A stretch of DNA of 32,000 bases, taken from NCBI RefSeq assembly GCF_018336915.1, contig NZ_CP064923.1, forward strand, positions 1,050,001-1,082,000, written 5' to 3'. Shown piece by piece: positions 2,432 through 32,000 of this stretch. The notes beneath the pieces are model-generated. The model had not been told where the DNA came from and searched no databases. It worked only from the letters and a program-made list of their open reading frames with translations. This stretch comes from Acaryochloris marina S15 (GTDB lineage: Bacteria; Cyanobacteriota; Cyanobacteriia; Thermosynechococcales; Thermosynechococcaceae). Position numbers and translations under genes: made by a program. Numbering within the stretch: the stretch's first letter is position 1; each line of letters starts with the position of its first letter.

Positions 2432-3898
2432 TTAATTCGGTGGAGCGATACGGGTGGCAAAATTTTGCGATCGTGTTGGTGATAACTGGCGTGCCTTCAA
2501 AATCGCTGCGGTCAAAAAGACATAGGCTAGAACCCCCACCGTCATCAGTGCTAAAACAGCCGCCAATTCTCCAAAGTTCCGAGCCAAACTCCCTGACGCA
2601 TTCCAAAAGGCATGAATCCCAGAAGACACCAGATAGCCAATTCCTAGGATCTGCCATCGCTGGGCTGGCTTGAGAATACTTAGCCCAATAAAATAGCCAA
2701 AAATACCGCTGTAGGCCATATGACCAGCCACCGATCCTAAGATTCTGGGAATCAAAAGCTGAACTGCAGCTAAGGCCCCAGCAAACTCATTCGAAGACGA
2801 TTGCGCAACCTGCTGGGCAATACCGGGGACATATTGTCCTAAGGTCTCCAGCAATGTAAATCCAAGGGCCGACGCTGCGCCAATCAAAATGCCATCCAAG
2901 GGCTCCCAAACCCCAACTTTTTGGCGACTCGGGGGGCGTAATTGCGATCCCAAATAGAAGAATCCAAAAATAGGCAGGGCCTTGAGCAACTCCTCCATTA
3001 AACCTGCGCCAAAGAAGTGACTAATCAGTTGGGAAATAAAATCAGGAGACGCATCTTGAACATTTCCGGGCAAAATTCCCCGAAAGACCAGAATAAACAG
3101 ACTCAAGATCGGCGTTACCAGGATCACCATTGTGAACAGGGTACTGAGGAACAACACCCACCAGGGCTTGGCTTTACCGCACAATCGATAAATGAAATAA
3201 AACCCGCCACCCCCTAGATACAAGGCCAAGAGCAAATTAAAGATAGGTGGGTTGCTCGCAAAGATAAATAGCAACACCACCATCATTACAGTGAGAATGC
3301 CAGGGATTAAATACCCCTTACCCAAGAGATCTTTGCGCGCTGAAACGATGGGAAACAGCTGACTTACAGTCACCTGGTTAGAGACAGCCCCCGGTGTTGG
3401 CTGAGTGGGATATACCGGTGGTTGAGGGGGATAAGACGGCTGGGGTGGGTTAGAAGGGGGATAAGACGGCTGTGTAGATATAGGAGCAGGAGAGCCCGTT
3501 GCGGCGAACTGATCTAAGAGCTGGGTGGCTCGATGCTCAAATAGGAATTCAGGGCCGTTGTGGCTCAACATCACCCGATCACCCACATTCAAGGTTTGAC
3601 ACCCCTGAATTCGTTGACCATTCACATAGGTGCCATTCGCACTATTGAGATCGCAAACTTGCCAAATCGGAGCACCTTGAGGCGTCCGAGAGCCCGTCGG
3701 TTTAACGATCGCATGACGGCGTGAAACTCCACCAAAAAGATTGGAATCAATGATCACTTGGCAGTCTGCCGTTCGCCCGATCGCCGTTTCCCCCGTTTCA
3801 GATAGGGAATAACAGGACTGAGCTACGTCAGCATTAGACTGAGCCGAAATAAGTCTGAGTAAACCACTCTGCCGATCGTTCACCATAGGTTGGTCCAC
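2432..3898 (-). CDS. FHA domain fused to a PrsW-family intramembrane protease domain
   Basis: 488 aa. The N-terminal FHA domain has canonical residues (IGRTADC, VSRRHAIV, NSANGTYVNGQ). A Pro-rich linker follows (QPSYPPSNPPQPSYPPQPPVYPTQPTP). The C-terminal multi-TM domain carries MEELLKALP (EExxK), AGHMAYSG and GIHAFWNASG, which are PrsW hallmarks. Confidence 0.8.
   Translation of the reverse strand: MDQPMVNDRQSGLLRLISAQSNADVAQSCYSLSETGETAIGRTADCQVIIDSNLFGGVSRRHAIVKPTGSRTPQGAPIWQVCDLNSANGTYVNGQRIQGCQTLNVGDRVMLSHNGPEFLFEHRATQLLDQFAATGSPAPISTQPSYPPSNPPQPSYPPQPPVYPTQPTPGAVSNQVTVSQLFPIVSARKDLLGKGYLIPGILTVMMVVLLFIFASNPPIFNLLLALYLGGGGFYFIYRLCGKAKPWWVLFLSTLFTMVILVTPILSLFILVFRGILPGNVQDASPDFISQLISHFFGAGLMEELLKALPIFGFFYLGSQLRPPSRQKVGVWEPLDGILIGAASALGFTLLETLGQYVPGIAQQVAQSSSNEFAGALAAVQLLIPRILGSVAGHMAYSGIFGYFIGLSILKPAQRWQILGIGYLVSSGIHAFWNASGSLARNFGELAAVLALMTVGVLAYVFLTAAILKARQLSPTRSQNFATRIAPPN
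3426..3472 (-). repeat. 17-nt direct repeat (GGGGGATAAGACGGCTG on + strand) at 3426-3442 and 3456-3472, 30-nt period
   Basis: Both copies encode QPSYPP inside the Pro-rich linker of the FHA-PrsW protein. This looks like a small in-frame duplication. Confidence 0.8.
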
Positions 3899-4206
3899 TG
3901 CTGATTAATTCTCATGTTGGCGCTTAAGGTATTGCTGTCTTGGACTAGGAGCCTGTCTTATTTCTTAGCAGGATTAGGATATTGCTGCAATCCTAAGAAT
4001 GCCCTCTATTCAGCCATCTATAGCCTGTAGCAGACTGCGATCGCGGTGATGATTGTCACGGCAGCACGGGTATGCTGAGGAGAAGGTAAGGATTGAAAGA
4101 GTCCTTAAAACAATTGGTACCTTATCCTGCTGTAGGCAAGATCCTGACTATTAATAAGGAAGATTGCTTCTGCACTTGATTCAGACTTTATGAGCTGGCG
4201 GCATCC

Positions 4207-4719
4207 ATGAGTGAATTAACACTCCAATGGTCAGAATTCGGCCAAACCAAAATCCAAGTTTTACGGGATCAACAACCCAGCAAACAGCTGGGCAAAATTC
4301 GCCTAGGTCGTGACCCCGCCCTGTGCGACATCGTTTTTCAAGAGCGTTCCGTTTCTGGGCTACATGTAGAAATTTTCTTTCAACCCCAAGCTCAACAGTT
4401 TTTTATTCGCAACCTGCGCCAACAAAATCCCCCCCTGGTAGATGGCACCTTGCTTAAACAAGGAGACTTACCCGTGCGAGCCGGGAGTCGGATTAAGCTC
4501 GGACGGGTAGAGCTTCAAATCACAGCTATGACCATTACGCCTCCTGCAGCGCCACCCGCTTTCCCCAAAAGTGGTCCCCCTTCAACGGCAGCTTATGGGT
4601 TGCAATGTCCCCAATGTCACCACGTCGCTGCCTATAGTAATGATGCGATCAAACAGGACTGTCCCATGTGTGGCCATTCCATGGCCACATCCAACACCGT
4701 TTTTATCGGCAAACCATAG
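4207..4719 (+). CDS. FHA-domain protein with C-terminal zinc-ribbon
   Basis: 170 aa. FHA residues: LGRDPALCDIVF, SVSGLHVEIFF and NPPLVDG (the usual NG[TV] is degenerate). After a Pro/Ala linker comes CPQCHH-x17-CPMCGH, a four-Cys ribbon. Confidence 0.72.
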   Translation: MSELTLQWSEFGQTKIQVLRDQQPSKQLGKIRLGRDPALCDIVFQERSVSGLHVEIFFQPQAQQFFIRNLRQQNPPLVDGTLLKQGDLPVRAGSRIKLGRVELQITAMTITPPAAPPAFPKSGPPSTAAYGLQCPQCHHVAAYSNDAIKQDCPMCGHSMATSNTVFIGKP

Positions 4720-4731
4720 GGGCGGTGAAGC

Positions 4732-6690
4732 ATGAGCACCATTCCTGGGCAAGTACGGTTGAACTGGCAAGATCCAGTTACGGGTGAACAACGAACCCCG
4801 CTTTTAACCTGTCCGATTGCCTTTGGCCGCGAATTCGCGCAGATGCCTGCAGAACTCAACCATCAGCGGGTGGCTCGAATCGTCCTCAATAGCAGCCAAG
4901 TCTCTCGTTATCACACCGTCATTGAATGGGTCCAAGGCCATATTCGCGTCACCGACCAAAACAGTAGTAACGGCACCTGGGTCAACGGCGTACTCCAACC
5001 CAGCTGCAACGTCAGCAATGGGGACCTCCTCAAAATTGGTCCCTACGAAATTACCTTGATGTTTACCCTGGACGGTACGGGCTTACCCACCGCCGAAGCC
5101 AGTGAGCAATCCATTATCCAGGTCCCCGAGCCAGATTCTCCCGTTCCGGCTGCGCCTGTTGCAGCTGCGCCCGTCAACGTTTTACCCCCTGCCTTCCAAG
5201 CCAATCAGGTCGTCGTTCAAGATCTATATGCCACCCAGCTCCCCGTAGAAGAGATCGACTACTTAGCCGTGGGCGCAGGGTTAGGCAGCTTCATCTGGGT
5301 AAATTTTCTGCGAATTTCGGGTGCAGCGCCCCAGCAAATTCGGGCCCTCGGTATCGAAGAGCGCCCCTATGCTCGTTACCAACGGCTCTGCCTCAACTCC
5401 CAAATCCCCCCCCATGAACGTCTAAGGTCCAACTCGGATTCCTGTCCTGACAACATCTGGGGATGGCCGGGCTATGCCTTACGAGAAGCTTGGCATGAGT
5501 TTAATAAAGGTAAACTCAATCCTGCATTGCAATACTTGTGGCAGGTCTTTGCTGAACCCACTTTTATCCAAACCTATACCCCCAGGGCAGGCAATGTATT
5601 CGCCTCCATTGATCGGGAAGCAGTTCGGATTGGCTGGCCCCAAATGTATCGGTTTGGGCGAGTCCGAGCCATTCGGAAGACCAACGATGGCCGCTATGCC
5701 ATTGCCTATTCTCCTGGTCGCAAACAAACAGCCTTTGTTGTTGCTCGTCATGTCCATCTGGCCACCGGTTATCCCGTTTTACAATTTTTACCCGATCTCA
5801 AAGCCTATCGAGAACAAACCCGAGACTTTAAATCCGTTGTCAATGCCTACGAAGACCATAACCATGTTTATGAAACCCTAGAACGCCAGGGAGGAACGGT
5901 CGTTCTGCGGGGACGGGGAATTGTCGCCTCTCGCATTATTCAAAGGCTCCACGAGGCTCGTCAGCGCAATGCCAATATTTCGATTTTGCACTTAATGCGA
6001 TCCCCTAAACCCAAAGGCAACCGATTTCGTAAAGCTCAAAGATCCGTTGACAATCATTTTGAATTCCAGCCCTTTAATTGGCCTAAAGCCTGTTGGGGAG
6101 GTACGTTGCGAGAAGAGCTAGAACAAGCTACCCCTGACCAACGCACCAATTTCCTAGCGGATTGGGGGGGCACCACCACGGCAGATCGCCAGGACTGGAA
6201 AGACTTGGTCCAGACAGGACTCGATCAGGGATGGTATCAAATCACCTTTGGTGAAGTCACCCGAGTCGTGCCCAATGCCCAATCTCGCCCCACGACCTAT
6301 ATCCAAGAAAAAGGACCCCGGGGTGAAATCCAGCTGGAGGCTGACTTCATCATTGATGCCACAGGTCTAGATAGCAAAGTCAAAGCCAGTCCGCTACTCA
6401 ATGATTTGGTCACCCACTATAATTTACCCTTGAACCCAGCAGGACGCTTGGCTGTCACCAATGACTTTGAACTCCTAGAAATGCGCAACCAAAATGGTCG
6501 CATGTATGGGGCAGGTGCCATTACATTCGGGGGACCCTATGCTGCAGTGGACAGCTTTTTAGGATTACAGTACACCGCCCTACAAGCCCTTGATGGCTTA
6601 GTTGCAGCCCGTGCCCCCAATCTCCGTCGGCTCAATGGTATCAGCTCATTTTTACAATGGCTGAAATGGGCTCAGAACAAAACTCCTTAA
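4732..6690 (+). CDS. FHA domain fused to a two-dinucleotide-binding-domain (FAD/NAD(P)H) flavoprotein-like oxidoreductase
   Basis: 652 aa. FHA residues: FGREF, VSRYHTVIEW, NSSNGTWVNG. After a Pro/Ala linker: YLAVGAGLGSF (nt 5272-5289, a GxGxxG-like variant), HLATGYP (ATG motif), VVLRGRGIVASRIIQRL (GxGxxA), IIDATGLD and MYGAGAITFG. The gene starts 12 nt after the upstream gene. Confidence 0.72.
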   Translation: MSTIPGQVRLNWQDPVTGEQRTPLLTCPIAFGREFAQMPAELNHQRVARIVLNSSQVSRYHTVIEWVQGHIRVTDQNSSNGTWVNGVLQPSCNVSNGDLLKIGPYEITLMFTLDGTGLPTAEASEQSIIQVPEPDSPVPAAPVAAAPVNVLPPAFQANQVVVQDLYATQLPVEEIDYLAVGAGLGSFIWVNFLRISGAAPQQIRALGIEERPYARYQRLCLNSQIPPHERLRSNSDSCPDNIWGWPGYALREAWHEFNKGKLNPALQYLWQVFAEPTFIQTYTPRAGNVFASIDREAVRIGWPQMYRFGRVRAIRKTNDGRYAIAYSPGRKQTAFVVARHVHLATGYPVLQFLPDLKAYREQTRDFKSVVNAYEDHNHVYETLERQGGTVVLRGRGIVASRIIQRLHEARQRNANISILHLMRSPKPKGNRFRKAQRSVDNHFEFQPFNWPKACWGGTLREELEQATPDQRTNFLADWGGTTTADRQDWKDLVQTGLDQGWYQITFGEVTRVVPNAQSRPTTYIQEKGPRGEIQLEADFIIDATGLDSKVKASPLLNDLVTHYNLPLNPAGRLAVTNDFELLEMRNQNGRMYGAGAITFGGPYAAVDSFLGLQYTALQALDGLVAARAPNLRRLNGISSFLQWLKWAQNKTP

Positions 6691-6702
6691 CGATTTCCAA
6701 CC

Positions 6703-7131
6703 ATGACCCCCACTCTGCTCGGACGCTGGCAAACCCGTATTCTACTCATGGAAACCGTGGGCCTTGTCATTACCCTTTTATTTTGCAGCGGTTTTTTCGG
6801 CAATCCTGAAGGCTCTGGTTATTTTTGGTTGCTACAATATATCGTTATCTTTGGTTTAGGCTGGGACTACCTTTACATCCAGATCCAGAACTTCCGCTGG
6901 GACCAAGATTGGCCAGCAGCACTGCAATGGATAGCAGCGTTATGGGAAGGACTGTTTATTATTTTGCTCAGCGATGTTGCTGAAATTAAATTACCAGGCA
7001 CAGATGTCTGGCACTTGGGCTGGTTTATTGTTCACTACAGCTTTGTCTGGATAGCCGTCTTTATTACCTCACAAAGTTTGATGCGCCTCATTTTCCCCCG
7101 TTGGCGTTTCCGTGGGGGTCAATGGTTATAA
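6703..7131 (+). CDS. small Trp-rich integral membrane protein (about 4 TM), unknown function
   Basis: 142 aa with hydrophobic segments and many Trp residues. It starts 12 nt after the FHA-flavoprotein stop, so it is probably co-transcribed. Confidence 0.6.
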   Translation: MTPTLLGRWQTRILLMETVGLVITLLFCSGFFGNPEGSGYFWLLQYIVIFGLGWDYLYIQIQNFRWDQDWPAALQWIAALWEGLFIILLSDVAEIKLPGTDVWHLGWFIVHYSFVWIAVFITSQSLMRLIFPRWRFRGGQWL

Positions 7132-7942
7132 GGCTGTAGCCGCTGATCAACACCCAGCTTTAGCGTTCAATAATCGCCTGCTCGAGTTCCGCTCTACCCT
7201 TGGATATTGGATACACTTTTGCTCAAGAGCATTTTTTATTCCTGCAGATATTTTTATTTATCCCCAGAAAATTACCCTTCAGATTTACCTATCATTTTGA
7301 CTAATGGCAAAAGCTCTAAACCCAATACTCAATCTCAGTTTATGGGCTAGACATCTCACCTATTTTGGGCAGTGGATGAGCTGAGATTTACGACAGCAGT
7401 TTTAATCGGCTTTCTTGGAACTATACATAATAGTCGGTAGCATCTGAACTACAGATAATCATTAGTTCCTCGATGGACAGTATATCGCACCTCGACATAC
7501 TCCTAAATAATCAAATACCCGTCAACACTTATCCATTCAGATTAGGTCGATGTACGTGACAGACTATAGAGTTTATTACTATTTTGTTAATACAGAAATT
7601 TCACTCTTCATTCTTCAACAGTGGGATTTTAAGCTTATAGAGGCAAAGGATTACAGACTTAGAGATTGATAAAATCCTATGTCATCCGAAGAATAGAGTT
7701 TTCCTGATTTTCCATCCAAAATATCATTTATTTTCCTCATAAAACTCACCAAGACTGCTATTCTCACACTCTTCCTAAATTTTTTAGTACTCATTACCGC
7801 ATCTCATTCAAGTAAATGGGAAAACTGTGGATTGGGTCTAAACAACCTTTTGCGATTCCCTTTATGCTTTATTGATGACAAGAAGCAGCATATATTATGC
7901 TTGTCTCAACAGGTGATATTGCAGAATAGGATTGATAAACTC

Positions 7943-8335
7943 ATGGCTAAAAAGCAAAAACAAGGTAAGACGCCTTTAAGTGGACAAGCCTTGGTTGAGA
8001 AGGTCAAACAACTCGAAGACCTAAGTCGTGAAGAAAAAGCGAAAGAATGCGGTTACTTTACCCTGAATGAGGATGGGTCAGAACGCATCAGCATGATGAA
8101 ATTCCTCAATGCTTTGATCGATGCTGAAGGCGTAGAATTAGATGGCAAAAGCCAAAATGGCAATGGTCGAGGCGGTCGCAACGCCAGCTACCGAATCAGC
8201 GTTCAATCCAATGGGAATTTGCTGATTGGGGCTGCCTATACCAAACAGATGGAATTGGCTCCTGGCGATGAGTTTGAAATTTCTCTTGGACGAAAGCATA
8301 TCCATTTAAAACAGATTACTGAAGATGAAGAATAG
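7943..8335 (+). CDS. cyanobacterial AbrB-like (cyAbrB, CalA/CalB-type) transcriptional regulator
   Basis: 130 aa from the ATG at 7943 (MAKKQKQGK...). The C-terminal SpoVT/AbrB-like swapped-hairpin region reads RISVQSNGNLLIGAAYTKQMELAPGDEFEISLGRKHIHLKQ. Size and C-terminal placement of the AbrB domain match the cyanobacterial clade. The 7832 start in the ORF track is a non-ATG extension. Confidence 0.78.
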   Translation: MAKKQKQGKTPLSGQALVEKVKQLEDLSREEKAKECGYFTLNEDGSERISMMKFLNALIDAEGVELDGKSQNGNGRGGRNASYRISVQSNGNLLIGAAYTKQMELAPGDEFEISLGRKHIHLKQITEDEE

Positions 8336-11732: not shown

Positions 11733-12275
11733 ATGTCCTCTAATATTGTTAAAATTCTGTCTGCTCAAGAATTGCGCCGTACAATTACGCGATTAGCATC
11801 AGAAGTGATTGAACGGGTAGGCACTCTCGATCAGCTAGTACTGCTTGGTATCCCCACACGGGGGGTTCCTTTAGCCAGTGCCTTAGCCCAGCAAATAGAG
11901 CTATTAGAGAATATCAAAGTCCCGGTTGGTAGCCTAGATATTACCTTCTACCGCGATGATTTAGACCAAATTACTGTCAGAACTCCTGGGAAAACTGACT
12001 TACCCACAGACCTCTCTCAGAAAACCGTTCTACTGGTTGATGATGTCATTTACAGTGGTCGAACGATACGAGCCGCCCTCAATGCCGTTCATGACTATGG
12101 CCGACCCACCCTGACTCAATTGCTTGTACTGATTGATCGGGGCCATCGAGAGCTGCCGATTCACCCTGACTTTACAGGCAAGGTATTGCCCACTGCACGA
12201 GAAGAACTGGTTAACGTCTATCTAGATGTTACGGATCAGCGTGATGGCGTTGAATTAGTTACCCGAGATCATTAA
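11733..12275 (+). CDS. pyrR: bifunctional pyrimidine operon regulator / uracil phosphoribosyltransferase PyrR
   Basis: 180 aa. PRPP-binding loop [18 protein letters not shown], plus [14 protein letters not shown] and [11 protein letters not shown], all typical of PyrR. Confidence 0.9.
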
Positions 12276-14555: not shown

Positions 14556-15164
14556 TTATTGAAAGTAAAAGGCCAAAAAAATGTGAAACCCAAGCATGAC
14601 AGTAAACATGCTGACCAGGATGATGTGGGTTGATAACCAGATCGAACGCAGTTTGCGAATGAGGGGCCCCTTGGAGACTGTTGGCAAGCGCTTGGCCAAA
14701 CCCTGCCAGCTTTGAGGGACCAACCCGAAATATTTCTGTGAGGACTCTAGAATCCCCGTTTCTGCAACCACGCCCATTAAGGCAGATAGGGCTACTCCAA
14801 AGAAAACCCAGAGAAATATTGCATTAAAATTATCGCCAATCGCTCCGCCCGTATGGAGTAAAACGGTGGCGACTAGGGCTACACCGACAAAAATATGCAA
14901 GCTGCGCCACAACAGAATAGAGCCCGGTACCGCAATTTTCCACCGCCGCCCTCGCTTGCGCAACGCTAGCATCAGTTCAAAGAAGACTAGAGCCAGAACA
15001 ATAAACCCGGTGATCAGCTTATACAGATCAGTTTGCAGAATGATCAGGGTATTGAAGTTGCGATCGCGCAGCAACGGAATATACACCCCACTCAAGGCAA
15101 AAGGGGTCAAAATGGCTGCTACAACCAATGTCAGAATAATCAGAGTGGAAAATTTGGGCTTCAT
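14556..15164 (-). CDS. integral membrane protein with two H-x13-H pairs (predicted di-heme cytochrome-b-like)
   Basis: 202 aa, about 5 TM. One helix reads H90-IFVGVALVATVLL-H104 and another reads H180-IILVSMFTVMLGF-H194. This is the bis-His spacing seen in cytochrome b and ferric-reductase-type helices. The CDS call is firmer than the cofactor prediction. Confidence 0.6.
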   Translation of the reverse strand: MKPKFSTLIILTLVVAAILTPFALSGVYIPLLRDRNFNTLIILQTDLYKLITGFIVLALVFFELMLALRKRGRRWKIAVPGSILLWRSLHIFVGVALVATVLLHTGGAIGDNFNAIFLWVFFGVALSALMGVVAETGILESSQKYFGLVPQSWQGLAKRLPTVSKGPLIRKLRSIWLSTHIILVSMFTVMLGFHIFLAFYFQ

Positions 15165-15304
15165 AGCTCAAAAAAGATGATAGGAATTCGAACCATCAGT
15201 TCGTCCCACGACTTTTGAAAAAATGCTCTAGGAGATTGACTGATGGCGCAATCCCCTTCCCCCACAGAGTGTTATAAACAATTACATTGGCTTAGAGCCA
15301 AAAT

Positions 15305-15958
15305 CTAGGCACCATCCAAGGGAATGTTGATCATGATGCCACCCATGACGTCATCCATCTTGAAGACCTTATCGGGATACCGTTCTTTGTGGATGGGATG
15401 GGTGTTATGACAAGTGACACACGCTTCAGCTACTGCCTTGTCTGGATAGAGGGCAGAGAAATATTTCTTACCTCCCACTTCTTGGAACTCCTTGAAAGGT
15501 TCTCCAGTTTTCTCAACTTCCTGGATTGCTTTTTTCTCAAAGTCATTTTTAGGACCTTGAGCGTCGTTAATATACCAAGTTGAAATTAGGTTGTAGGTAA
15601 AAGCAGTATCTGATTCGGATGCAATTTCAGACCCGAGACGAAACATTTGAGCAGGCAAGGGAATACCATTACTGGTTTCCCAACCTTCGGTAGCTTCTAT
15701 ATCCAGAACGCCTTTATCCTTCGCATTCCCCTCCAATTTCTTGGCTCGGTTAACGACATGCTTGGTATAGGCTGTCCGGTCAGAGGCTAAAGCAGTATGG
15801 ATGTAATCGGCAACCAATTCGGGTTTTACACCACCCGTTGCCTGAGATTCCGCACCTCCACTACAGGCCACAGCTGTGAAACAAATCGCCGCAGCTAAAG
15901 CAAAGAAAGCAAAGGTTCTTGTGCGCAATTGGCGCACCCATTTTCGGGTCAAGTTCAT
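15305..15958 (-). CDS. Tll0287-like (DUF3365-type) c-type heme lipoprotein
   Basis: 217 aa. Signal peptide with lipobox-like AVAC (Cys32). A single CVTCH (aa 180-184) near the C-terminus is followed by MDDVMGGIMINIPL, which matches my memory of the DUF3365/Tll0287 PAS-like heme family. A strong AGGAG Shine-Dalgarno sequence lies upstream. Confidence 0.62.
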   Translation of the reverse strand: MNLTRKWVRQLRTRTFAFFALAAAICFTAVACSGGAESQATGGVKPELVADYIHTALASDRTAYTKHVVNRAKKLEGNAKDKGVLDIEATEGWETSNGIPLPAQMFRLGSEIASESDTAFTYNLISTWYINDAQGPKNDFEKKAIQEVEKTGEPFKEFQEVGGKKYFSALYPDKAVAEACVTCHNTHPIHKERYPDKVFKMDDVMGGIMINIPLDGA

Positions 15959-16009
15959 CTTGTGTCTCCTCTCAATGACATAAATCTGATTCGTTAGATA
16001 GGGACTGGA

Positions 16010-16792
16010 TTACTTCGAAGTGGCATTACCCGACCGTTGGGTTTCTAGAGTACGCACCATCTTCAGGGTGTCCAGGGATAAGGTGGGCGGTCGGGCAAAG
16101 TTCGATTCCACTAAGTCATCGTCAAACATGCTGTTGTAGGCAAATTCCATGCCATGGCAATTCATACAGACTTCCTTCACCATGCGATCTCGGGGCAGTA
16201 ACGTATAGGTATTGTTGTGGTTGACCATCACCGTCCCCGACTCCGATGTTTGTCGCGGCAGATGGCATGTGGCACAAGTGGTTGAAACCGTTGAAGGACG
16301 GGGGAGTACCCCCTCTTCTTGCAGCAACTGAGCATGCCGGGAGTTTTTGTAATTCAGCGAGTGGTTGTCTTTATGGCACGTCAGACAAGAATCGACCGAG
16401 GCCGGTAGAGTTTTGACAGAATGAGCATCATGGCAAGCATTACAGTTCATTTGCTTATCATGGACAGCCGCCTGCATCGGCAGGTGAGCCAAAGCTGGTG
16501 TTAGGGCAGGTTGCCCTTCCAGTAGACGAATGCCATGCTTACCCAGCAAAAAGGTATCCACCTGTCCCTCATGGCAGGAGCGACAGCTTTCATGGGTCGG
16601 TTGCTGAATCACCTGCTTAGCGGACTGAGGTTGGTGACAGCTCGAACAGTTCACCTCAGCTAAGGCATGGGCACTTTTTGACCAGCTTTGATTAATGGCT
16701 TGGAGCTGAGCGTTGTCAACTGCAGCAACGGGGGCCGTCAAGCCACTCCATAGCAGTAGCGCTAGCAACCCTCCCAGGACGACCTGCTTCAT
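16010..16792 (-). CDS. secreted hexaheme c-type cytochrome
   Basis: 260 aa. Signal peptide MKQVVLGGLLALLLWSGLTAPVAA. Six CXXCH motifs: CSSCH, CRSCH, CNACH, CLTCH, CATCH, CMNCH. Many extra His residues are available as distal ligands. Confidence 0.85.
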   Translation of the reverse strand: MKQVVLGGLLALLLWSGLTAPVAAVDNAQLQAINQSWSKSAHALAEVNCSSCHQPQSAKQVIQQPTHESCRSCHEGQVDTFLLGKHGIRLLEGQPALTPALAHLPMQAAVHDKQMNCNACHDAHSVKTLPASVDSCLTCHKDNHSLNYKNSRHAQLLQEEGVLPRPSTVSTTCATCHLPRQTSESGTVMVNHNNTYTLLPRDRMVKEVCMNCHGMEFAYNSMFDDDLVESNFARPPTLSLDTLKMVRTLETQRSGNATSK

Positions 16793-17487
16793 GCTCGCCC
16801 TCCCACAAACTCTTTCCCCAAATCCGGTTGAGGAGGGGTTTTAAGTTCAGGCTTAAAGCTACGTTCGGGTAACGCAGGTTTGGGCAACATGTCCGCCTGG
16901 CCCATATTTTGGCGCAAGAACCCCGTTGAGATGGTGCGGTGGTCATGGTAATTGTGGCAACCGGCTGTCCAGCATCCATCAGGAGAGAAGTCTTTATGAC
17001 TCGCCAGTTCCCCTTGGATAATGCCTTCATGGCAAATCATGCAAAGATCAGGCTTCAGATGTACCCCCCGATCAAACATATGCACATGTTCGTTATGGCA
17101 AGTCGTGCAGGTTAGAACCTCTAATTTCTCTAATTCAGCAGCCCAGCGCAGATCACGGAACTTCTTGGGTCCATGGGCATCCGTTGCCATTTCCGCCTCA
17201 TGACAGCGCATACAGGTTTCATTCGTCACGGGTTTAAAACCTTCATGGCATGAAGCACAAGAGGCTTCAAACAGGATGTGGCCATTAGAGGTTACACCCG
17301 GTAAAAAGATTGTCTTGTGGTCTAGGGCAAAAGCTGCCCCTAACCACCCCATTAAGATTAAACACAGCAAAATTACGGTATTTCTGACATTGAATAGAGT
17401 CGAAAAGCTGAAAAAAGATTTTTGCGTCTTGGCCACTACAACTGCCCTAGAGAATTTAGACCAACAGAATGGCAATAATGACCGCAA
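16789..17487 (-). CDS. membrane-anchored pentaheme c-type cytochrome (cytochrome c3 / class III-like)
   Basis: Four CXXCH motifs (CASCH, CMRCH, CTTCH, CMICH) plus CWTAGCH (CX4CH, nt 16954-16974). N-terminal TM helix VILLCLILMGWLGAAFAL. The stop overlaps the next start as ATGA (16789-16792). The start is uncertain: the TTG at 17487 overlaps the globin 3' end by 32 nt, while an in-frame GTG at 17436 lies about 20 nt after the globin stop. Confidence 0.8.
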   Translation of the reverse strand: MRSLLPFCWSKFSRAVVVAKTQKSFFSFSTLFNVRNTVILLCLILMGWLGAAFALDHKTIFLPGVTSNGHILFEASCASCHEGFKPVTNETCMRCHEAEMATDAHGPKKFRDLRWAAELEKLEVLTCTTCHNEHVHMFDRGVHLKPDLCMICHEGIIQGELASHKDFSPDGCWTAGCHNYHDHRTISTGFLRQNMGQADMLPKPALPERSFKPELKTPPQPDLGKEFVGGRA

Positions 17488-18499
17488 TAATGCCGCCGCC
17501 CGCCAGACCTAATAGCAATCCTGTTGGGCGATCACTCTCCACAACTTCACTGACTTCACTAGAAATAAGGCTGGGCTGTGCAGGTTGAGCAGAATTGAGA
17601 TCTAACGCTGCTTCCGAGTAATCAGCACCATCCAACATAATCGTGGAGATGGCTCCATAGGCATCAATCCAAGCCTGTTTGACGTCATCCGTCCAGGCAG
17701 ATCCGAGAAATTGTTCAAAGGTTTTGAGGAGGGTATTGCCGACCAACGGATAATGCTCGGGCAAGGCCCCATATTGGACATGTCGGGCCCCTAGCCCTTG
17801 CAGGGCATCTCCCAACACCTCTGGCTTGCGCAGGTTTTCCACAACCAAAACCAGGGATTGTAGGAGCTTTTTGCTTTGTTGTTTGATGTCCGTGTTCGCA
17901 AATAAAGGTTTGGCAGCGGGATAATCCGTGAATAAGTTGTCGTAGAAGCGATCGGCAAACTCAGTAGCGACTGGCTTCACTTGGGCAAAGCTATTTTCCA
18001 GAAGTTCAACTTGCAGCGGAGAACCTGAATCAGCAGGTGGCGTGGCAGCTTCTGGATCGAGTTGCACTTCTGCTTCTGAATAATCTGCACCGTCCAGCAT
18101 GATCGTGGTGATAGCACCATAGGCATCTACCCAGGCGGATTGAACCTCCTCAGTCCATGCGTCCCCCAGATATTGTTCAAAGGTCTTGAGCAAGGTTGAC
18201 CCCACCAATGGGTAATGCTCAGGTAAGGCCCCATATTTCACATGTCGGGCTCCCAGACCTTTGAGGGCGTTACTCAAAGCATCCGGTTTACGTAGATTTT
18301 CAATAACCAACACCAAGGATTGCAAGAGCTTACCGCCTTGTTTCTCCATATCGGTCCCCTCAAAGAGGGGTTGAGCCGCTGGATAGTCTGTGAATAAATT
18401 GTGATAAAAGCTTGAAACAAATTCATTAGCTTGAGGTTTAACTTTCTCAAAGCTGCTTTCAAGCAGTTCGACTTGTAAGGCCATAGATGTACCTATCAA
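17456..18499 (-). CDS. tandem (double) Hmp-like globin with C-terminal transmembrane anchor
   Basis: 347 aa. Two globin domains (aa 8-143 and 162-297) each carry FY(H/D)NLFTDYPAA.PLF and LGARHV(K/Q)YGALPEHYPLVG...AW(V/I)DAYGAI. These align well with my memory of the flavohemoglobin globin domain (FYDRMF...PELKEIF; AQKH...KPEQYNIVGEHLL...AWGKAYGVL). There is no signal peptide. C-terminal TM: GLLLGLAGGGIIAVIIAILLV. Confidence 0.85.
   Translation of the reverse strand: MIGTSMALQVELLESSFEKVKPQANEFVSSFYHNLFTDYPAAQPLFEGTDMEKQGGKLLQSLVLVIENLRKPDALSNALKGLGARHVKYGALPEHYPLVGSTLLKTFEQYLGDAWTEEVQSAWVDAYGAITTIMLDGADYSEAEVQLDPEAATPPADSGSPLQVELLENSFAQVKPVATEFADRFYDNLFTDYPAAKPLFANTDIKQQSKKLLQSLVLVVENLRKPEVLGDALQGLGARHVQYGALPEHYPLVGNTLLKTFEQFLGSAWTDDVKQAWIDAYGAISTIMLDGADYSEAALDLNSAQPAQPSLISSEVSEVVESDRPTGLLLGLAGGGIIAVIIAILLV
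17609..18478 (-). repeat. intragenic tandem duplication, period 462 nt (154 codons), two copies (17609-18016 and 18071-18478)
   Basis: By hand alignment the two encoded globin domains are identical at 103 of 136 positions. DNA similarity is also visible, for example 18203 versus 17741. Confidence 0.85.
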
Positions 18500-18955
18500 A
18501 AATGTAAAGTTCAGGCACTAGAGGAAAATACAAAAAATTGTCTTCTAGATTTATTTTGGGCCCTCAGTTGAGCACTTAGAAACTGAATAATCTGAAGCGA
18601 ACATTCTCACAAAAAAGAAGAAGTTCAACATAGAAGCTCTAAGCCAAACAAAGACTCTTGATCATAGTTTGCAAGTGTGAATTAACTCAATCAGAGGTCT
18701 TCTCACCCTAAAGACATCATGAATTAAAGATGATATTAGCTTCCTACGGTCGCTATCTCAATTTATGCTCAAAAACTATCAATATCGCTTTATCTGTGAT
18801 CTTCAAGAATAATGAGTCTCAGGCTATAACATTAACTTTCAGGCATTCATAAACAAAATTTACCTGCTATTGCAAAATATGCATTCTAAGTTAAAAAATA
18901 ATGATTCCTTAGGTCGTATCAATTAATACAATTAAAGCTTTTTAACAGCTAAAAT

Positions 18956-18974
18956 ATGCATTGAATCAATGCAT
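18956..18974. promoter_or_regulatory. perfect 9-1-9 palindrome ATGCATTGA-A-TCAATGCAT within a cluster of ATGCAT motifs
   Basis: The palindrome was verified by reverse-complementing. Other ATGCAT copies lie at 18879-18884 and 18978-18983, with GTGCAT at 18990-18995. AAAATATGCATT is repeated at 18874-18885 and 18951-18962. Its role is unproven: it may be an operator for the globin operon, or a terminator hairpin of the upstream ccs-pentapeptide unit. Confidence 0.4.
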
Positions 18975-19044
18975 TTAATGCATACCAAAGTGCATATTTC
19001 AAGAACTTCACAGATGGTTTCTGTTAATCGTATAAAAAGCTACA

Positions 19045-19971
19045 TTAACTAGGGATATTTAACGCACCTCGTTTTCGAAGTAGTTGCTTTTGCTCACTTG
19101 TTAAACCGTGGGCATCGGTGAAGATAGCACCTGACACAATGCTGTTAGAGAAATCTACCTTGTGCAGTTGAGTCTTTTCTAGATTGGCATCCCGAAAATC
19201 TGTATTGGTGACGATGGCACCGGTTAAATCAGCCTGTTCCAAATTAGCGCTATACAGGGAGGCCTGCTCAAGATGGGTTGCACTCATACAGCCCCGGATC
19301 AAGGACACATGATCTAAACTGGCCTCCTGCAATTGTGCTTCCTTGAGATTGGCTTGATCAAAGTTGCTACCGATTAGATCAGCCCCCTTAAAATCAGCCT
19401 GTTTCAAATCGGATTTCACAAACTGAGAACGCTCCAAGCGGGCATGGGCAAAGATGGCTTCTGGAAACTGGGCCTGACTCAGATTGGCATCATTGAGCTT
19501 AGCCCGACTGAAGTTAGCACCCTTAAAGTCACTCTGGGATAAATCCGCCTTGATCAAAATGGCATCTCGAAAAGAGGCATAGTGGCCTTTTGCCTCTGCC
19601 AAATCGACTGCCTCTAATATGGCTGTAGCTACATTCGCCTGATCCAAACAAGCACCATGGAGCTTTAACTTCACCCCATGAATTCCCATCAAATTAGCCG
19701 AGTCCAGCCGGGCGGATGTGAGTTGGGCCTCGGTGAGTAGGGCGTCTTGTAAGCTAATTCCTGTAAGGATCGAAAAGATCAGGATGGCTTCAGTAAAATC
19801 GGCTCGATTGCAGGACGCTCCGGATAAATTAGCCACGCGCAAATAGGCTTGCGGAAAGTGGCCTTCATCCAGGCAGCACCCTTGTAAATTGATATTACTG
19901 AGCTCTGCCCCCTGCAAAGAAATACCTTGTTGGACTTTTGTTTGTACCTCTTCAGGTGTGAGAACGGCCAT
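19045..19971 (-). CDS. pentapeptide-repeat protein
   Basis: About 308 aa from the ATG at 19971. It is almost entirely A(D/N)LxX-type repeats (ANLSGASCNRADFTEA..., ADLSQSDFKGANFSRAKLNDANLSQAQF...). The gene lies 47 nt (5 nt if the TTG at 20013 is used) downstream of ccsA on the same strand. Confidence 0.9.
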   Translation of the reverse strand: MAVLTPEEVQTKVQQGISLQGAELSNINLQGCCLDEGHFPQAYLRVANLSGASCNRADFTEAILIFSILTGISLQDALLTEAQLTSARLDSANLMGIHGVKLKLHGACLDQANVATAILEAVDLAEAKGHYASFRDAILIKADLSQSDFKGANFSRAKLNDANLSQAQFPEAIFAHARLERSQFVKSDLKQADFKGADLIGSNFDQANLKEAQLQEASLDHVSLIRGCMSATHLEQASLYSANLEQADLTGAIVTNTDFRDANLEKTQLHKVDFSNSIVSGAIFTDAHGLTSEQKQLLRKRGALNIPS

Positions 19972-20018
19972 CGCTTTATTTCCCCATAGGTATGTATAAG
20001 TGGGGCTGCCCAATCCAG

Positions 20019-21719
20019 CTATGCATCAACCGTCTGCACCTCAGGTACTGGAATAGAGGCATCAGTATGATGTTGAGAACGATAGCGAAGAATCGTTGCT
20101 AGAACGAACAAGGTATCTAAGCCAACAATGCTGGCAATCAGCAGTTCAGAGCCACCTGTGCCAAACCCATAGCTATGTAGTCCGGTTCCCAAGACAAAAT
20201 TGACCCCATACCAAGCCATCAGCACAGCATTAAAGGCCAAAACACTCGCAACACTCATGCCAAAATAACCTAACCAACCGGCCAACCGGCCATGCACAGG
20301 AGCTAAATAGCAGAGCAAAGCAATTAAAGCCCAAGTCTCTTTCGGATCCCAGCCCCAAAACCGTCCCCAGGAAAAATGGGCCCAGATACCGCCCAAAATA
20401 ATGCCCGTGGTGAGCAGCAAAATACCCACTTGAATCACCCGGGTATTGAGGCGAGATAAGGAGATTGCCATGGTCGTGCCTTCAGGTCGCCGCCAATACT
20501 GAATGAGCGTTAGATGCCCCAGTCCCATTGCCAAAGCGAAGCTGGCATAGCTGAGGGTAATTGTGGGCACATGGATACTCAACCAGAAGTTATCTCGGAG
20601 GACAGGCACTAAGGGAGCAATACTGGGATCTAGCACCGCAGGTAAACTATCCGCCAGCAATAGACAAACGACTGCTAGGGGAGCTGCCGCCAATAAGTAG
20701 GAGCGGGCTCGGGTCTGTAGTTCAAAACAAAAGGCTAAGGCAGCAATTCCAAATCCAACCCACACCACTGACTCATACATATTGGTGACGGGAGGACGGC
20801 CCGCAATTTGCATGCGCAGACCGAAACCAAAGGCCTGAACCAAGATGCCTCCAAGAAACGTTCCCATACCGCTCCAATAGAAATCGAAGTTCGGAATGAG
20901 TTGGCTGATGAGGAGTATGAGAAATGCTATCCCATATAGTTTCCAAGCTTTACCAAAGGGATGGAAGTGATTGAAAAACACTTCCCGGTGCAGGGTTGCT
21001 TGATCTGGGTAAATCCCAGAACTCAAGTCTGCTAAGGACCGTTGCAATGAAGTTGCAGGCTCCTCCAAAGCACTTAAATCATCACCATTGCCTTGATATT
21101 GCTGGTTGAGTTGCTCAAACTGGGCTTGAATGTGGGTCGCTATCTCAGAAGAATACAGCTGCTGCGCCTCCGCAACCCCTACCCAAGTGCCTTTGATATC
21201 TCGCGGATGGGGAACGAGGGGCAACGTTTGATTACCCACCGTATCCAACATTAAATTCAGTCGATCTTCGAGGGTGAAAGCTTCACGTTCATCCCTTGTC
21301 AGTGGCTGTTCTTGCAGCTGCTTGGTATGCGCTTGTTGCAAGATACGGGCCAAGTCAGAATTGACTAGAGTAGAGAAACTAAAATGCTTTTGCTCTACGG
21401 GCAATCCTATTTCGGCTTTGAGGGGACGATAGTTGACCAAAATAAAGGGTTCATCATTCCAATCCCGACTGTTCTGCCAGAGAGACCAATAGATTTGAGG
21501 GGCATCTAAAACCTCACCACTCAATAGCTGATAGCGCTCTGAACCATGAAGCGTCTCTACTGTTTCTCTGGCCACTGTATCTAACGGCTTCTTTCGCCCA
21601 TCCAGCTGAACAGCCATCGTATCAACCGCCGTTTGGGTAGTCGGCTGCCATTGACTAATAGGGGTGACCATCAACGCACAAGCGAGACAAAGTCCCCATA
21701 AAAATTTCAATTGATTCAT
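20019..21719 (-). CDS. ccsA: long-form cytochrome c biogenesis protein CcsA/ResC (System II heme handling)
   Basis: 566 aa. WWD domain WGRFWGWDPKETWAL (nt 20331-20369) is flanked by conserved His residues (SIHVPT, GLGH, APVHGR). A roughly 230-aa extra soluble region follows the N-terminal signal/TM. The start overlaps the ccsB stop (TAATG at 21717-21721). Confidence 0.85.
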   Translation of the reverse strand: MNQLKFLWGLCLACALMVTPISQWQPTTQTAVDTMAVQLDGRKKPLDTVARETVETLHGSERYQLLSGEVLDAPQIYWSLWQNSRDWNDEPFILVNYRPLKAEIGLPVEQKHFSFSTLVNSDLARILQQAHTKQLQEQPLTRDEREAFTLEDRLNLMLDTVGNQTLPLVPHPRDIKGTWVGVAEAQQLYSSEIATHIQAQFEQLNQQYQGNGDDLSALEEPATSLQRSLADLSSGIYPDQATLHREVFFNHFHPFGKAWKLYGIAFLILLISQLIPNFDFYWSGMGTFLGGILVQAFGFGLRMQIAGRPPVTNMYESVVWVGFGIAALAFCFELQTRARSYLLAAAPLAVVCLLLADSLPAVLDPSIAPLVPVLRDNFWLSIHVPTITLSYASFALAMGLGHLTLIQYWRRPEGTTMAISLSRLNTRVIQVGILLLTTGIILGGIWAHFSWGRFWGWDPKETWALIALLCYLAPVHGRLAGWLGYFGMSVASVLAFNAVLMAWYGVNFVLGTGLHSYGFGTGGSELLIASIVGLDTLFVLATILRYRSQHHTDASIPVPEVQTVDA

Positions 21720-23488
21720 TATCCATCCTGAGTCGCAAGTGAAATGGGTGCTGGATCAGCCACAACTGGCTGAGCAGAGTCTTCCGGTATGGCTGTAGGG
21801 AAGGGTTTTGCCCGCTTTTTCCACAGGGTGGGGCCATAGAACATGACGCCAATGCCCACTACCGTTAATAAGGCACCACTCCAAGTCAACGCGGTCACCC
21901 ATATCGGTTCGCGTTTAATTTGCAGAGTGGACTGGTTCAAATCCCCAGGATTCCATGAGGCTTGAGCAATTTTCCACCCTTGGTACCAGGTGGGGTGGTT
22001 CATCCAGACCGAGCGTTGTTGGGTTTCTCCCCCCTCTAAATTTTCGAGGCGAATCTGACTGGTCCACATGGCCACCGATTCGCTGCCTTCATTCCGCTCA
22101 ACGATAAAGTCATCCAAACTAATCCCGAAGGGTAAAGCCATCATCCGGGGACCAAACGCTGTCATCAATGCATGGGAACCATCTGTAATCAGCGCTGATT
22201 CTCCCCAGGGTAGCCACTGCCGATGCCCATCTGCAGTCGCAACCTGCAACGCCGGAACCCCCTCTACCCCAGGTGGAGCCGAGAAACGCTCTTGAATCAT
22301 CTCAGCATGGGGAAGCCAGTCTGCCAGGGCGATTTGAAAATCTGCCCAGCCGGGTTGAATGATTTGATCCATGGCCAAGGGGCCTGAGGAAAATTCTTGG
22401 GAAGACCGAGCTGCATAATAGAGCTGTTGATTAGCCACAACGACCCGAAAATAGTCCGTGGCAGAGGGAGGTGGCACTTGATAGCTCAAGCTCAGATCAA
22501 ATTGCTCAGCATCTCCCACTAAGATGGGGTCTAATCCCGTTTGGGCAAACACATACCAGTGTTCTCGGTGATCCGCCTGGACTAGTTCCACTTCAACGGC
22601 TGGATTACGCCAGTCCTGGGACGCAGTGATGGGCTGATTGTGATCATCCAACCGAAAGTCTGGCCAGGCATTGACTAGATGTATCGTTGCATCATCTAAA
22701 CTCCCATCATGACGATGCAACTCATCAATGGCAAAGGTGGTATTTATTTCTCCCAACTGTATCTGTAGGGTTCCAGATGGCCTGGATTGAGCTTGAGTGG
22801 GATCTGCTAAAAGCTGTTGGAGGTTGCTCTTATCTGCAGCTTGCCAAAGCTCCAGTTGGGCAGGCCCCAAATCAATTCTGTCAGCAGCGGGGGATAGCCA
22901 TTGTTCGAAGGTTTGGCCCATGCGATCGCTACTTAATACCAAGCGTATTGCTGGCTCATCCTGGGCATCACCTTCTCGGTACTCAACTGTTTCGATCGAA
23001 TTCTCGTTGTAGTCCAACAACGTCAGCCCAACAAATTGAGTGGGAGAAATAACTCGCTCAGGCGTTACCATCACCGCCGCCTGTTGCACTTGACCTTGGT
23101 CATCCATCACTTCCAGTAACTCACCCTCAACCCTCACCAGATGGTTAGCAGGCTGATCCGTGCGGACTAGTAATAGTCCTTCCACACCGAGATGAATCAC
23201 TGCCGCAGATCCCGCAATCAGCACAATCAGCCCTAAGTGGGTGAGGGCAAAACCGACTTTCCGGGCTCCTCGCCAGGGATAGCGGGACAGGGTAGAGATG
23301 CCCAAATTGACTGCCAGCAGGAACATCAAGGCTCCAAACCAGGGACTTTTATAAATTTGCTGTTGAACCACAAGGGAGCCAACTTTGCTCTCATAGAACG
23401 TGGCCCAAACCAAGATACTTGCGATCGCAACTAATACGGGTACAGCTAACTTAATTGAACCCAAAAAGCGGATAAATTTTGAGACCAT
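21719..23488 (-). CDS. ccsB: cytochrome c biogenesis protein CcsB/ResB (Ccs1-like)
   Basis: 589 aa from the ATG at 23488 (MVSKFIRFLGSIKLAVPVLV...). ResB-type N-terminal TM pair includes ALTHLGLIVLIAG. A large soluble domain and a C-terminal TM (VTALTWSGALLTVVGIGVMFY) follow. Confidence 0.85.
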   Translation of the reverse strand: MVSKFIRFLGSIKLAVPVLVAIASILVWATFYESKVGSLVVQQQIYKSPWFGALMFLLAVNLGISTLSRYPWRGARKVGFALTHLGLIVLIAGSAAVIHLGVEGLLLVRTDQPANHLVRVEGELLEVMDDQGQVQQAAVMVTPERVISPTQFVGLTLLDYNENSIETVEYREGDAQDEPAIRLVLSSDRMGQTFEQWLSPAADRIDLGPAQLELWQAADKSNLQQLLADPTQAQSRPSGTLQIQLGEINTTFAIDELHRHDGSLDDATIHLVNAWPDFRLDDHNQPITASQDWRNPAVEVELVQADHREHWYVFAQTGLDPILVGDAEQFDLSLSYQVPPPSATDYFRVVVANQQLYYAARSSQEFSSGPLAMDQIIQPGWADFQIALADWLPHAEMIQERFSAPPGVEGVPALQVATADGHRQWLPWGESALITDGSHALMTAFGPRMMALPFGISLDDFIVERNEGSESVAMWTSQIRLENLEGGETQQRSVWMNHPTWYQGWKIAQASWNPGDLNQSTLQIKREPIWVTALTWSGALLTVVGIGVMFYGPTLWKKRAKPFPTAIPEDSAQPVVADPAPISLATQDG

Positions 23489-23630
23489 GCAAACTTCAGC
23501 CAATAGGGAACCTGACCCTATTTAGTCTGAATCGACTGGCCTAAATTGTAGTGAATCTATCAAAGTTATCGATCGACAAGGGTCATAAATGCGTTAATTG
23601 CATTTACGGCATGAATAAAATGCATCCCTG

Positions 23631-31792: not shown

Positions 31793-32000
31793 GGTAGTTT
31801 TATCTAAGTTCCGATTAAAGTTAATGCACTATTAAGTGTAAGGGCTTGGGTGACGCATTACTAGGACTGAGAAATAGAACCCTTGCCCGGCTGATTGTGG
31901 ACGATTGCGCTATCTAATATCCTTAGCCATCATTCTCACGGCATGAAACAAATACGTTCAGTCTATATCTTCAACAGCAGTTGGCACAGGTTACTGCTCC

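Follow-up and report, generated by a model that had tools for sequence, protein, structure and literature searches.

The stretch of DNA analysed here, 32,000 nucleotides of the cyanobacterium Acaryochloris marina (hereafter the window), encodes a three-gene unit that is widely conserved in cyanobacteria, is shared with Chloroflexota and was previously undescribed. Its genes lie on the plus strand and encode, in order, a 170-residue protein with an FHA domain and a zinc ribbon (FHA-Zn), a 652-residue protein in which an FHA domain precedes a domain resembling N-hydroxylating monooxygenases (the NMO-like enzyme), and a 142-residue tryptophan-rich membrane protein (TM145). A fourth gene, divergently transcribed, encodes an FHA domain fused to a PrsW-type intramembrane protease (FHA-PrsW). 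The original prediction had taken all four genes for a single phosphothreonine-gated membrane system linking regulated intramembrane proteolysis to a redox enzyme, and had not recognised it as a described one. The plus-strand genes are indeed a conserved unit, but FHA-PrsW is not part of it. As for novelty, a literature search that included the A. marina MBIC11017 locus tags AM1_4519-4522 found no published study of the unit's genes, though the FHA-PrsW fusion has already been listed as a probable signalling peptidase (Zhang et al., 2012, PMC3482391). The 652-residue protein is identical to WP_212664735, and the MBIC11017 equivalents of the window genes are AM1_4520 to AM1_4522.

Gene order provides the principal evidence for the unit. 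Scanning genomes for relatives of the 652-residue enzyme turned up at least 544 stretches that encode one, and the neighbourhoods were read in the best 80 of these. FHA-Zn immediately precedes the enzyme gene on the same strand in all 77 of the loci with upstream sequence, an arrangement far beyond chance, and it holds the same position in L081, L082, L165, L166 and L167 (loci are given by number where they have to be told apart). TM145 follows the enzyme immediately in Acaryochloris, Lyngbya confervoides, Vasconcelosia, a Thermosynechococcaceae metagenome-assembled genome (MAG), L052 and Picosynechococcus PCC 7003 (L081); indeed, it adjoins the enzyme in every non-heterocystous locus with downstream sequence. 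In cyanobacteria and Chloroflexota alike, its reading frame often overlaps that of the enzyme. The contig of L052 (CALRTB020000017.1) is labelled as a Sphingobacterium thalpophilum MAG, carries the cyanobacterial unit together with a kinase near-identical to that of Picosynechococcus, and is probably mis-binned. In many Nostocales TM145 lies farther downstream, 0.9-3.2 kb away on the same strand and beyond a gene for a GDSL/SGNH hydrolase (30 loci), and in 14 Nostocales loci a gene for an Rce1-like (PF02517) intramembrane protease directly follows that of the enzyme. Such expanded operons, with protease and/or hydrolase between enzyme and TM145 on one strand, include L007, L008, L009, L014, L019, L020, L022, L030, L036, L038, L040, L047, L060 and others. 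At many Nostoc loci TM145 is not found within 8 kb of the enzyme; Nostoc genomes nonetheless encode it. Halotia branconii possesses a paralogous second copy of the trio. Outside the cyanobacteria, an Anaerolineales genome (L082; Chloroflexota) has the order kinase, FHA-Zn, FHA-enzyme, TM145. The trio recurs in two further contigs, of Chloroflexota or unassigned (L166, L167). One local rearrangement was seen in Anabaena sp. UHCC 0204 (L018), where TM145 (6919-7350) lies upstream of FHA-Zn on the opposite strand, still beside the unit.

Variation in domain architecture distinguishes the core of the unit from its regulatory periphery. Among 67 full-length representatives of the enzyme, 28 lack any N-terminal extension, 22 carry a single FHA domain, six carry two, ten have an unrecognised extension and one is fused to a kinase. 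Enzymes that lack the FHA domain are still paired with TM145, the stop codon of the one gene overlapping the start codon of the next, and have no FHA-Zn gene beside them. The core is therefore enzyme plus TM145; the FHA domain and FHA-Zn make up a regulatory layer found in roughly half of the enzyme family. At L167, a small protein with two FHA domains and a zinc ribbon (5219-5968) precedes an enzyme without FHA (6001-7623). This exchange of FHA domains between neighbouring genes suggests that the small protein and the enzyme work together, and that the FHA domain can apparently be supplied in trans.

The non-FHA part of the enzyme (residues 160-652) gave no Pfam, NCBIfam or PDB sequence match, and a PDB search with the whole 652-residue protein returned FHA domains only. 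It is conserved at 64-70% identity across Nostocales, Picosynechococcus, Crinalium, Chamaesiphon and other cyanobacteria, and the family is narrow, given that an exhaustive search of 1.84 billion cluster representatives yielded only 431 relatives. Its invariant motifs are GAGLGS, of the flavin adenine dinucleotide (FAD) type and placed after the first strand; R-GRGIVAS-R followed by HLMRSP, of the type that binds reduced nicotinamide adenine dinucleotide phosphate (NADPH); and the FATGY-like IIDATGLD. The corresponding GxGxG, GxGxxA and ATG motifs do not vary among 63 sequences from two phyla, down to 36% identity. Further invariant stretches, RLRSNSDSCPDNIWGWP, QPFNWPKACWGG and WGGTTTADR, are specific to the family, and a C-terminal S-x-x-QW-x-x-W...P signature is conserved through the final residue.

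Structure prediction gives this domain a fold like that of the flavin-dependent N-hydroxylating monooxygenases. An initial full-length model built from 23 close orthologues was poor, with a predicted local distance difference test score (pLDDT) of 60.7 and fold matches of low template modelling (TM) score, and was replaced by an AlphaFold model from a 63-sequence alignment that included Chloroflexota and paralogues (pLDDT 88.6, predicted TM score 0.87). The best 39 PDB matches of the second model in Foldseek belong without exception to the N-hydroxylating monooxygenases (E 4e-18 to 8e-16; TM scores of 0.65-0.74 on the target; 12-14% identity), among them SidA, PvdA, KtzI and DfoA, with DesB and lysine 6-monooxygenase lower in the list, whereas dihydrolipoamide dehydrogenase reaches a TM score of only 0.49. 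Alignment to Escherichia coli IucD with hhalign sets IIDATGLD on VIFATGY and aligns the C-termini, with an E-value of 3e-4 and a probability of 40% that apply to the C-terminal part only. The third motif reads DATGL, not (L/F)ATGY, and the motif set is compatible with class B N-hydroxylases without being diagnostic of them. The two most conserved family-specific loops have the lowest model confidence (pLDDT 56-62), which is consistent with a novel active site or partner interface. From the predicted structure we conclude that the 652-residue protein is probably a flavoenzyme with the monooxygenase fold of class B, related very distantly to the siderophore N-hydroxylases and lying outside their family. 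The earlier description of the protein as a flavoprotein is thus borne out by the motifs and the fold, but the accompanying suggestion of a Pyr_redox-type disulfide reductase had to be abandoned: no Pyr_redox profile matches, the 63-sequence alignment holds no conserved cysteine pair (C61 of the domain is near-invariant, a second cysteine is not), and the similarity to dihydrolipoamide dehydrogenase is low.

TM145 contains 12 tryptophans in its 142 residues (8.5%) and three to four hydrophobic helices, in keeping with the Trp-rich membrane protein that had been proposed for this gene. It has 682 homologues of about 140-150 residues, none with a Pfam domain among the matches listed, and TM145 itself has no Pfam or NCBIfam match and nothing significant in a PDB sequence search. 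Nineteen of its residues are invariant across two phyla (M1, P3, G7, R8, Q10, R12, G20, G51, D55, Y58, Q62, W66, D69, W70, E82, H111, Y112, R135 and G138), and Thr2, Thr4 and Thr11 are nearly so. The conserved stretches are an N-terminal M-T-P-x-L-x-G-R-x-Q-T-R, a W-D-x-D-W motif, a glutamate in the third helix, a histidine-tyrosine pair in the fourth and R-F-x-G-G at the end. To judge from alignments and gene order, TM145 is the dedicated partner of the NMO-like enzyme and represents an unannotated family.

The first protein of the unit, FHA-Zn, ends in a CPQC-x14-CPMC motif. The zinc ribbon it had been credited with is putative: the motif is kept in orthologues including those of Chloroflexota, the second CxxC knuckle being conserved across phyla, and profile matches are weak and below their cut-offs (TIGR02605, E 0.0025). 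We propose that FHA-Zn is a putative adaptor or regulatory subunit. All three FHA domains of the locus exceed the Pfam gathering score (E 2e-14 in FHA-PrsW, 3.9e-11 in FHA-Zn and 2.6e-12 in the enzyme; 54.2, 43.7 and 47.4 bits against a PF00498 cut-off of 20.7) and, as originally predicted, all keep the G-R and S-x-x-H phosphothreonine-binding residues (IGR/SRRH, LGR/SGLH and FGR/SRYH, respectively). The N-G-T motif is likewise kept in FHA-PrsW and the enzyme; FHA-Zn has N-P-P at this position, and the N-P change is common to its orthologues. A recent duplication of the FHA domains of the two operon proteins was rejected on the strength of their mutual BLASTP E-value (0.023). We also dropped the FHA structure of Synechocystis Slr1951 (3hx1) as an orthologue, since it is a weak generic FHA match to the 652-residue protein (E 0.0012) and is absent from the PDB matches of the other two FHA proteins.

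The supposed connection to phosphothreonine signalling gained support from genes that encode Hanks-type Ser/Thr kinases, which flank the unit in four loci. A Pkinase gene directly follows TM145 in Picosynechococcus (L081; Pkinase-DUF4189), in L052 and in Vasconcelosia (L005; Pkinase-TPR), and in the Anaerolineales locus one lies directly upstream of FHA-Zn; moreover, one relative (P0166) is a fusion of a kinase domain to the enzyme domain. In Vasconcelosia, FHA-PrsW, the operon and the kinase form a five-gene cluster. The sensor domains of the adjacent kinases differ, and the unit therefore appears to take its input from various kinases.

FHA-PrsW (488 residues) combines its N-terminal FHA domain, through a proline-rich linker, with a polytopic PrsW-type intramembrane protease of at least four hydrophobic helices. 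Its identification as a PrsW protease was confirmed (PF13367, E 1.1e-36; 126.7 bits against a cut-off of 23.5), and the catalytic motifs are intact: the catalytic-type residues E302, E303, K306, H393, H429 and N433 are invariant in five orthologues of 52-83% identity, as are the FHA binding residues in the same alignment. Against NCBIfam NF033739, the equivalog model of Bacillus subtilis PrsW, the protein scores 21.3 bits, far below the cut-off of 225; judged by these profile scores, it is a member of the PrsW superfamily and not an orthologue of B. subtilis PrsW. The divergent arrangement with the operon is confined to Acaryochloris, Lyngbya confervoides, Vasconcelosia and one Thermosynechococcaceae MAG (L001, L003-L006, L010 and L085), and the outer flanking genes differ among these four lineages. 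No PrsW gene occurs within 8 kb of the enzyme in any Nostocales, Picosynechococcus, Aphanothece, Phormidium or Oculatellaceae locus examined. In the reciprocal comparison, 80 metagenomic loci with full-length FHA-PrsW orthologues (46-67% identity) were inspected: the operon adjoins FHA-PrsW in one, an Acaryochloris-like locus, and is missing from the other 79, so that FHA-PrsW must be regarded as an independent gene whose adjacency to the operon is lineage-restricted. About 40 of the 80 loci instead have FHA-PrsW followed convergently by an unknown 215-residue protein and a CHAT-FHA protein, and about 30 also have a 762-residue zinc-ribbon-PP2C phosphatase. FHA-PrsW consequently stands apart as a gene widespread in cyanobacteria, one that belongs to their phosphothreonine network independently and lies outside the conserved core. 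These loci (L087-L164) constitute a second recurrent FHA/phosphatase neighbourhood in its own right (for example L123:5475-6122, L139:9503-11083 and L104:11320-13608).

Taking these observations together, we lean, with modest confidence, towards a reading in which the unit is a kinase-controlled, FHA-docked enzyme with an obligate membrane partner and an adaptor, FHA-PrsW being separate. The 652-residue protein would be an enzyme that depends on NADPH and FAD, adopts the class B (N-hydroxylating monooxygenase-like) fold and begins with an FHA domain. TM145 would be its obligate membrane partner, kept in fixed proportion through tight or overlapping translation, and would both anchor the enzyme at the membrane and form part of the substrate site; because its invariant residues include polar ones, TM145 may well contribute to the handling of substrate and not serve as a mere anchor. 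A Hanks-type Ser/Thr kinase, encoded elsewhere in Acaryochloris, would make the phosphothreonine marks on which the FHA domains of the enzyme and of FHA-Zn, the presumed regulatory adaptor, would dock, thereby recruiting or switching the flavoenzyme complex. Candidate phosphothreonine ligands are the kinase, the proline-rich linkers and the near-invariant threonines of TM145. Our best guess for the substrate is a nucleophilic amine or thiol carried by some constituent of the membrane or envelope: the analogy with class B enzymes suggests a soft nucleophile of this kind, and the membrane partner together with the GDSL hydrolase of Nostocales suggests a membrane or envelope molecule. FHA-PrsW would be a separate phosphothreonine-gated signalling protease that may share its kinase input with the operon.

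Several observations weigh against this reading and must be set beside it. The Lys/Orn oxygenase model PF13434 does not match the window protein even at an E-value of 1, and it finds weak matches in only two of the 63 relatives (best E 0.0019); cofactor binding and catalysis are deduced from motifs and from a modelled fold at 12-14% identity, and the complex of enzyme and TM145 is deduced from gene order. The kinases that adjoin the unit differ in their sensor domains (DUF4189, TPR, SH3), with no single conserved partner among them, and the window itself contains no kinase. Finally, the divergent FHA-PrsW arrangement persists in four lineages as distant from one another (65-69% identity) as Acaryochloris is from Nostocales, while their other flanks differ. 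With the Rce1-like protease found inside Nostocales operons, this persistence indicates that a protease may play some part beyond mere adjacency. PrsW and the Rce1-like proteases are members of one superfamily, and what survives of the proposed link to proteolysis is its weaker form, a possible loose functional connection of the unit with intramembrane proteases, in place of an integral role for PrsW.

The strongest version of that link, in which all four genes form one system and phosphothreonine gates a PrsW proteolysis that either targets the flavoenzyme complex or is governed by it (PrsW might, for instance, cleave TM145, FHA-Zn or a shared membrane regulator), is favoured by the endurance of the divergent pair in four lineages amid changing outer flanks, by the Vasconcelosia kinase that completes a five-gene cluster, by the intact PrsW catalytic motifs and by the 14 Nostocales loci with an Rce1-like protease directly after the enzyme gene. 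We nevertheless regard it as unlikely, considering that the operon accompanies FHA-PrsW in a single one of the 80 loci found from the protease side, that about half of the others place FHA-PrsW in the company of CHAT-FHA and PP2C genes, that no PrsW gene occurs within 8 kb of the enzyme in the five cyanobacterial groups named above, that the Chloroflexota units have no protease, and that no intergenic motif is conserved across lineages.

Two other explanations concern the chemistry. The enzyme could be an NAD(P)H:acceptor reductase whose electrons go to TM145 or to a quinone, the pair being a kinase-regulated membrane redox couple in which a TM145 dimer might bind a cofactor through its single invariant histidine. 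The two-dinucleotide-binding fold is common to reductases, dihydrolipoamide dehydrogenase is among the fold matches, the two genes are tightly coupled, and His, Glu, Asp and Arg are among the invariant residues that TM145 has within its helices or close to them; set against this, reductase structures reach a TM score of 0.49 compared with 0.65-0.74 for the monooxygenases, the wider family conserves no redox-active cysteine pair, and TM145 has one invariant histidine and no match to a known haem or quinone protein, which makes a reductase distinctly improbable in our estimation. We give still less credence to a catalytically dead NMO-like domain serving as a scaffold, with the unit a signalling or assembly platform at the membrane. 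It would account for the failure of every known-enzyme profile to recognise the domain and for the low model confidence of its most conserved loops, as would be expected of interaction surfaces, but the dinucleotide-binding motifs that pseudoenzymes usually lose are invariant in 63 sequences from two phyla, and the pairing of enzyme and TM145 where neither FHA domain nor kinase is present makes it unlikely that the unit serves signalling alone. Defence, too, is held to be an unlikely role, in view of the phylum-wide vertical conservation of the unit and the lack of any match in the PADLOC defence-system library.

The features of the locus are collected in Table 1. The four open reading frames (ORFs) and the spacers of 308, 12 and 12 nt between them fall exactly where they had been placed.

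Table 1. Genes, domains and intergenic region of the FHA locus, in window coordinates.
Feature	Position	Strand	Description
FHA-PrsW gene	2432..3898	-	ORF, 488 aa
PrsW protease domain	2516..3169	-	residues 244-461; E302-E303-x-x-K306, G-H393-MAYSG, H429-A-x-W-N433; Pfam
FHA domain of PrsW protein	3566..3784	-	residues 39-111; G41-R42, S59-R-R-H62, N88-G-T90; Pfam envelope
Divergent intergenic region	3899..4206	.	308 bp between FHA-PrsW and FHA-Zn genes
FHA-Zn gene	4207..4719	+	ORF, 170 aa
FHA domain of FHA-Zn	4297-4503	+	residues 31-99; Pfam E 3.9e-11
Zinc ribbon of FHA-Zn (putative)	4597-4680	+	residues ~131-158, C-terminal CPxC...CPxC, after Pro-rich linker
FHA-NMO-like enzyme gene	4732..6690	+	ORF, 652 aa
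FHA domain of 652-aa protein	4831-5040	+	residues 34-103; Pfam E 2.6e-12
NMO-like domain	5209..6687	+	residues 160-652; two-Rossmann flavoenzyme-like, after low-complexity linker
TM145 gene	6703..7131	+	ORF, 142 aa

The divergent intergenic region presumably carries promoters for both directions. No consensus sigma-70-type promoter was called within it, promoter and terminator scans giving the same counts as shuffled controls, and it matches no Rfam family. Acaryochloris strains that share only about 87% protein identity keep blocks such as TTATTTCTTAGCAGGAT...ATTGCTGCAATC, which holds an inverted repeat, and GTCCTTAAAACAATTGGTACCTTATC; none of these blocks is common to the other lineages compared. 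Rfam and transfer RNA scans of the whole window likewise gave no match. The statement that the window encodes no Ser/Thr kinase or PP2C phosphatase also holds: Pfam scans of 36 ORFs, among them every ORF of at least 110 residues except 22687-23052, 31467-31835 and 11733-12275, returned no Pkinase or PP2C match, and these three are too short for a kinase (the first two, moreover, overlap longer ORFs).

The immediate neighbours were excluded from the unit, as their synteny with it is restricted to Acaryochloris. Beside FHA-PrsW these are an FGGY-kinase ORF (253-1554) and a 2OG-Fe(II) oxygenase ORF (1482-2393), which overlap by 73 nt as listed, the true start of the oxygenase probably being a later codon; downstream lies a cyanobacterial AbrB-like regulator (7832-8335; PF14250, E 1.5e-35), preceded by 700 bp of AT-rich sequence (7132-7831; GC 0.39) without long ORFs. 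Farther along, the minus strand from 14556 to 23503 holds a haem-related run of genes that looks like a dedicated cytochrome/globin cluster. It encodes a Tll0287-like protein, two multihaem c-type cytochromes, a protein in which two globin domains are joined, a pentapeptide-repeat protein, and proteins of the CcsA-like and ResB-like types for cytochrome c assembly.

Hanks kinases and FHA proteins are numerous in cyanobacteria, yet hardly any pathway is known in full, from the kinase to its effector. The present unit offers a concrete effector, found in at least 544 species-level genome stretches, in which two of the three components belong to unannotated families and one has a clear enzyme fold. 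It occurs in strains amenable to genetics, namely Picosynechococcus PCC 7002/7003 and Nostocales, the Picosynechococcus kinase gene lying immediately downstream, and a chain from kinase through FHA domain to enzyme is thus directly testable. Should the enzyme indeed modify a membrane or envelope molecule, it would represent a new reaction in cyanobacterial physiology and a new type of FHA-regulated enzyme. A bolder and rather doubtful extension is that the trio is an unrecognised kinase-controlled membrane oxygenase complex, near phylum-wide in cyanobacteria and shared with Chloroflexota, which with the PrsW and Rce1 proteases and the GDSL hydrolase of Nostocales would make up a new pathway converting a kinase signal into chemical modification of a membrane or envelope component.

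Comparison with known systems serves to define what is familiar and what is new. The closest structural parallel is with the class B N-hydroxylating monooxygenases (SidA, PvdA, KtzI, DfoA/DesB and IucD), which share the three-domain, two-Rossmann fold (TM 0.65-0.74) and the succession GxGxG, GxGxxA and FATGY, here the similar DATGL; the C-terminus of IucD aligns with the C-terminal QW motif of the window family. Identity to these enzymes is only 12-14%, however, and the window protein has no PF13434 match, is some 50-70 residues longer and carries invariant loops (SNSDSCPDNIWGWP, QPFNWPKACWGG and GGTTTADR) without counterpart in them. Unlike the class B enzymes, it has an FHA fusion and a dedicated membrane partner, lies in no siderophore cluster, and is distributed phylum-wide and not patchily. 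To our knowledge, the only well-known fusion of a flavin monooxygenase to an FHA domain is the plant zeaxanthin epoxidase, which acts at the photosynthetic membrane. That enzyme is of class A, with a single Rossmann domain of the PF01494 type and a C-terminal FHA domain, whereas the window enzyme has a class B fold, an N-terminal FHA domain and separate adaptor and membrane subunits; we know of no sequence relation between the two.

With respect to proteolysis, FHA-PrsW resembles the B. subtilis site-1 protease PrsW in its PrsW-protease domain with EExxK, H and HxxxN motifs, but no anti-sigma or sigma-factor gene lies nearby, and the cyanobacterial FHA-PrsW genes are found mostly near CHAT-FHA and PP2C genes, unlike B. 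subtilis PrsW. In its regulatory logic the unit most resembles the actinobacterial Hanks kinase-FHA modules (GarA/OdhI, EmbR-PknH, Rv1747-PknF and FhaA/FhaB), in which a canonical FHA domain is likewise fused to or partnered with an effector and kinase genes are often adjacent; the best PDB sequence matches of all three window FHA domains are the actinobacterial FHA proteins of these very modules. The window unit differs from them in that its effector is a flavoenzyme with a membrane partner instead of a metabolic inhibitor, a transcription factor or an ABC transporter, in that no single cognate kinase is conserved, and in that it belongs to different phyla. FHA effectors under Hanks kinases are thus of a known kind; what is new here is the family of enzyme and partner at the core.

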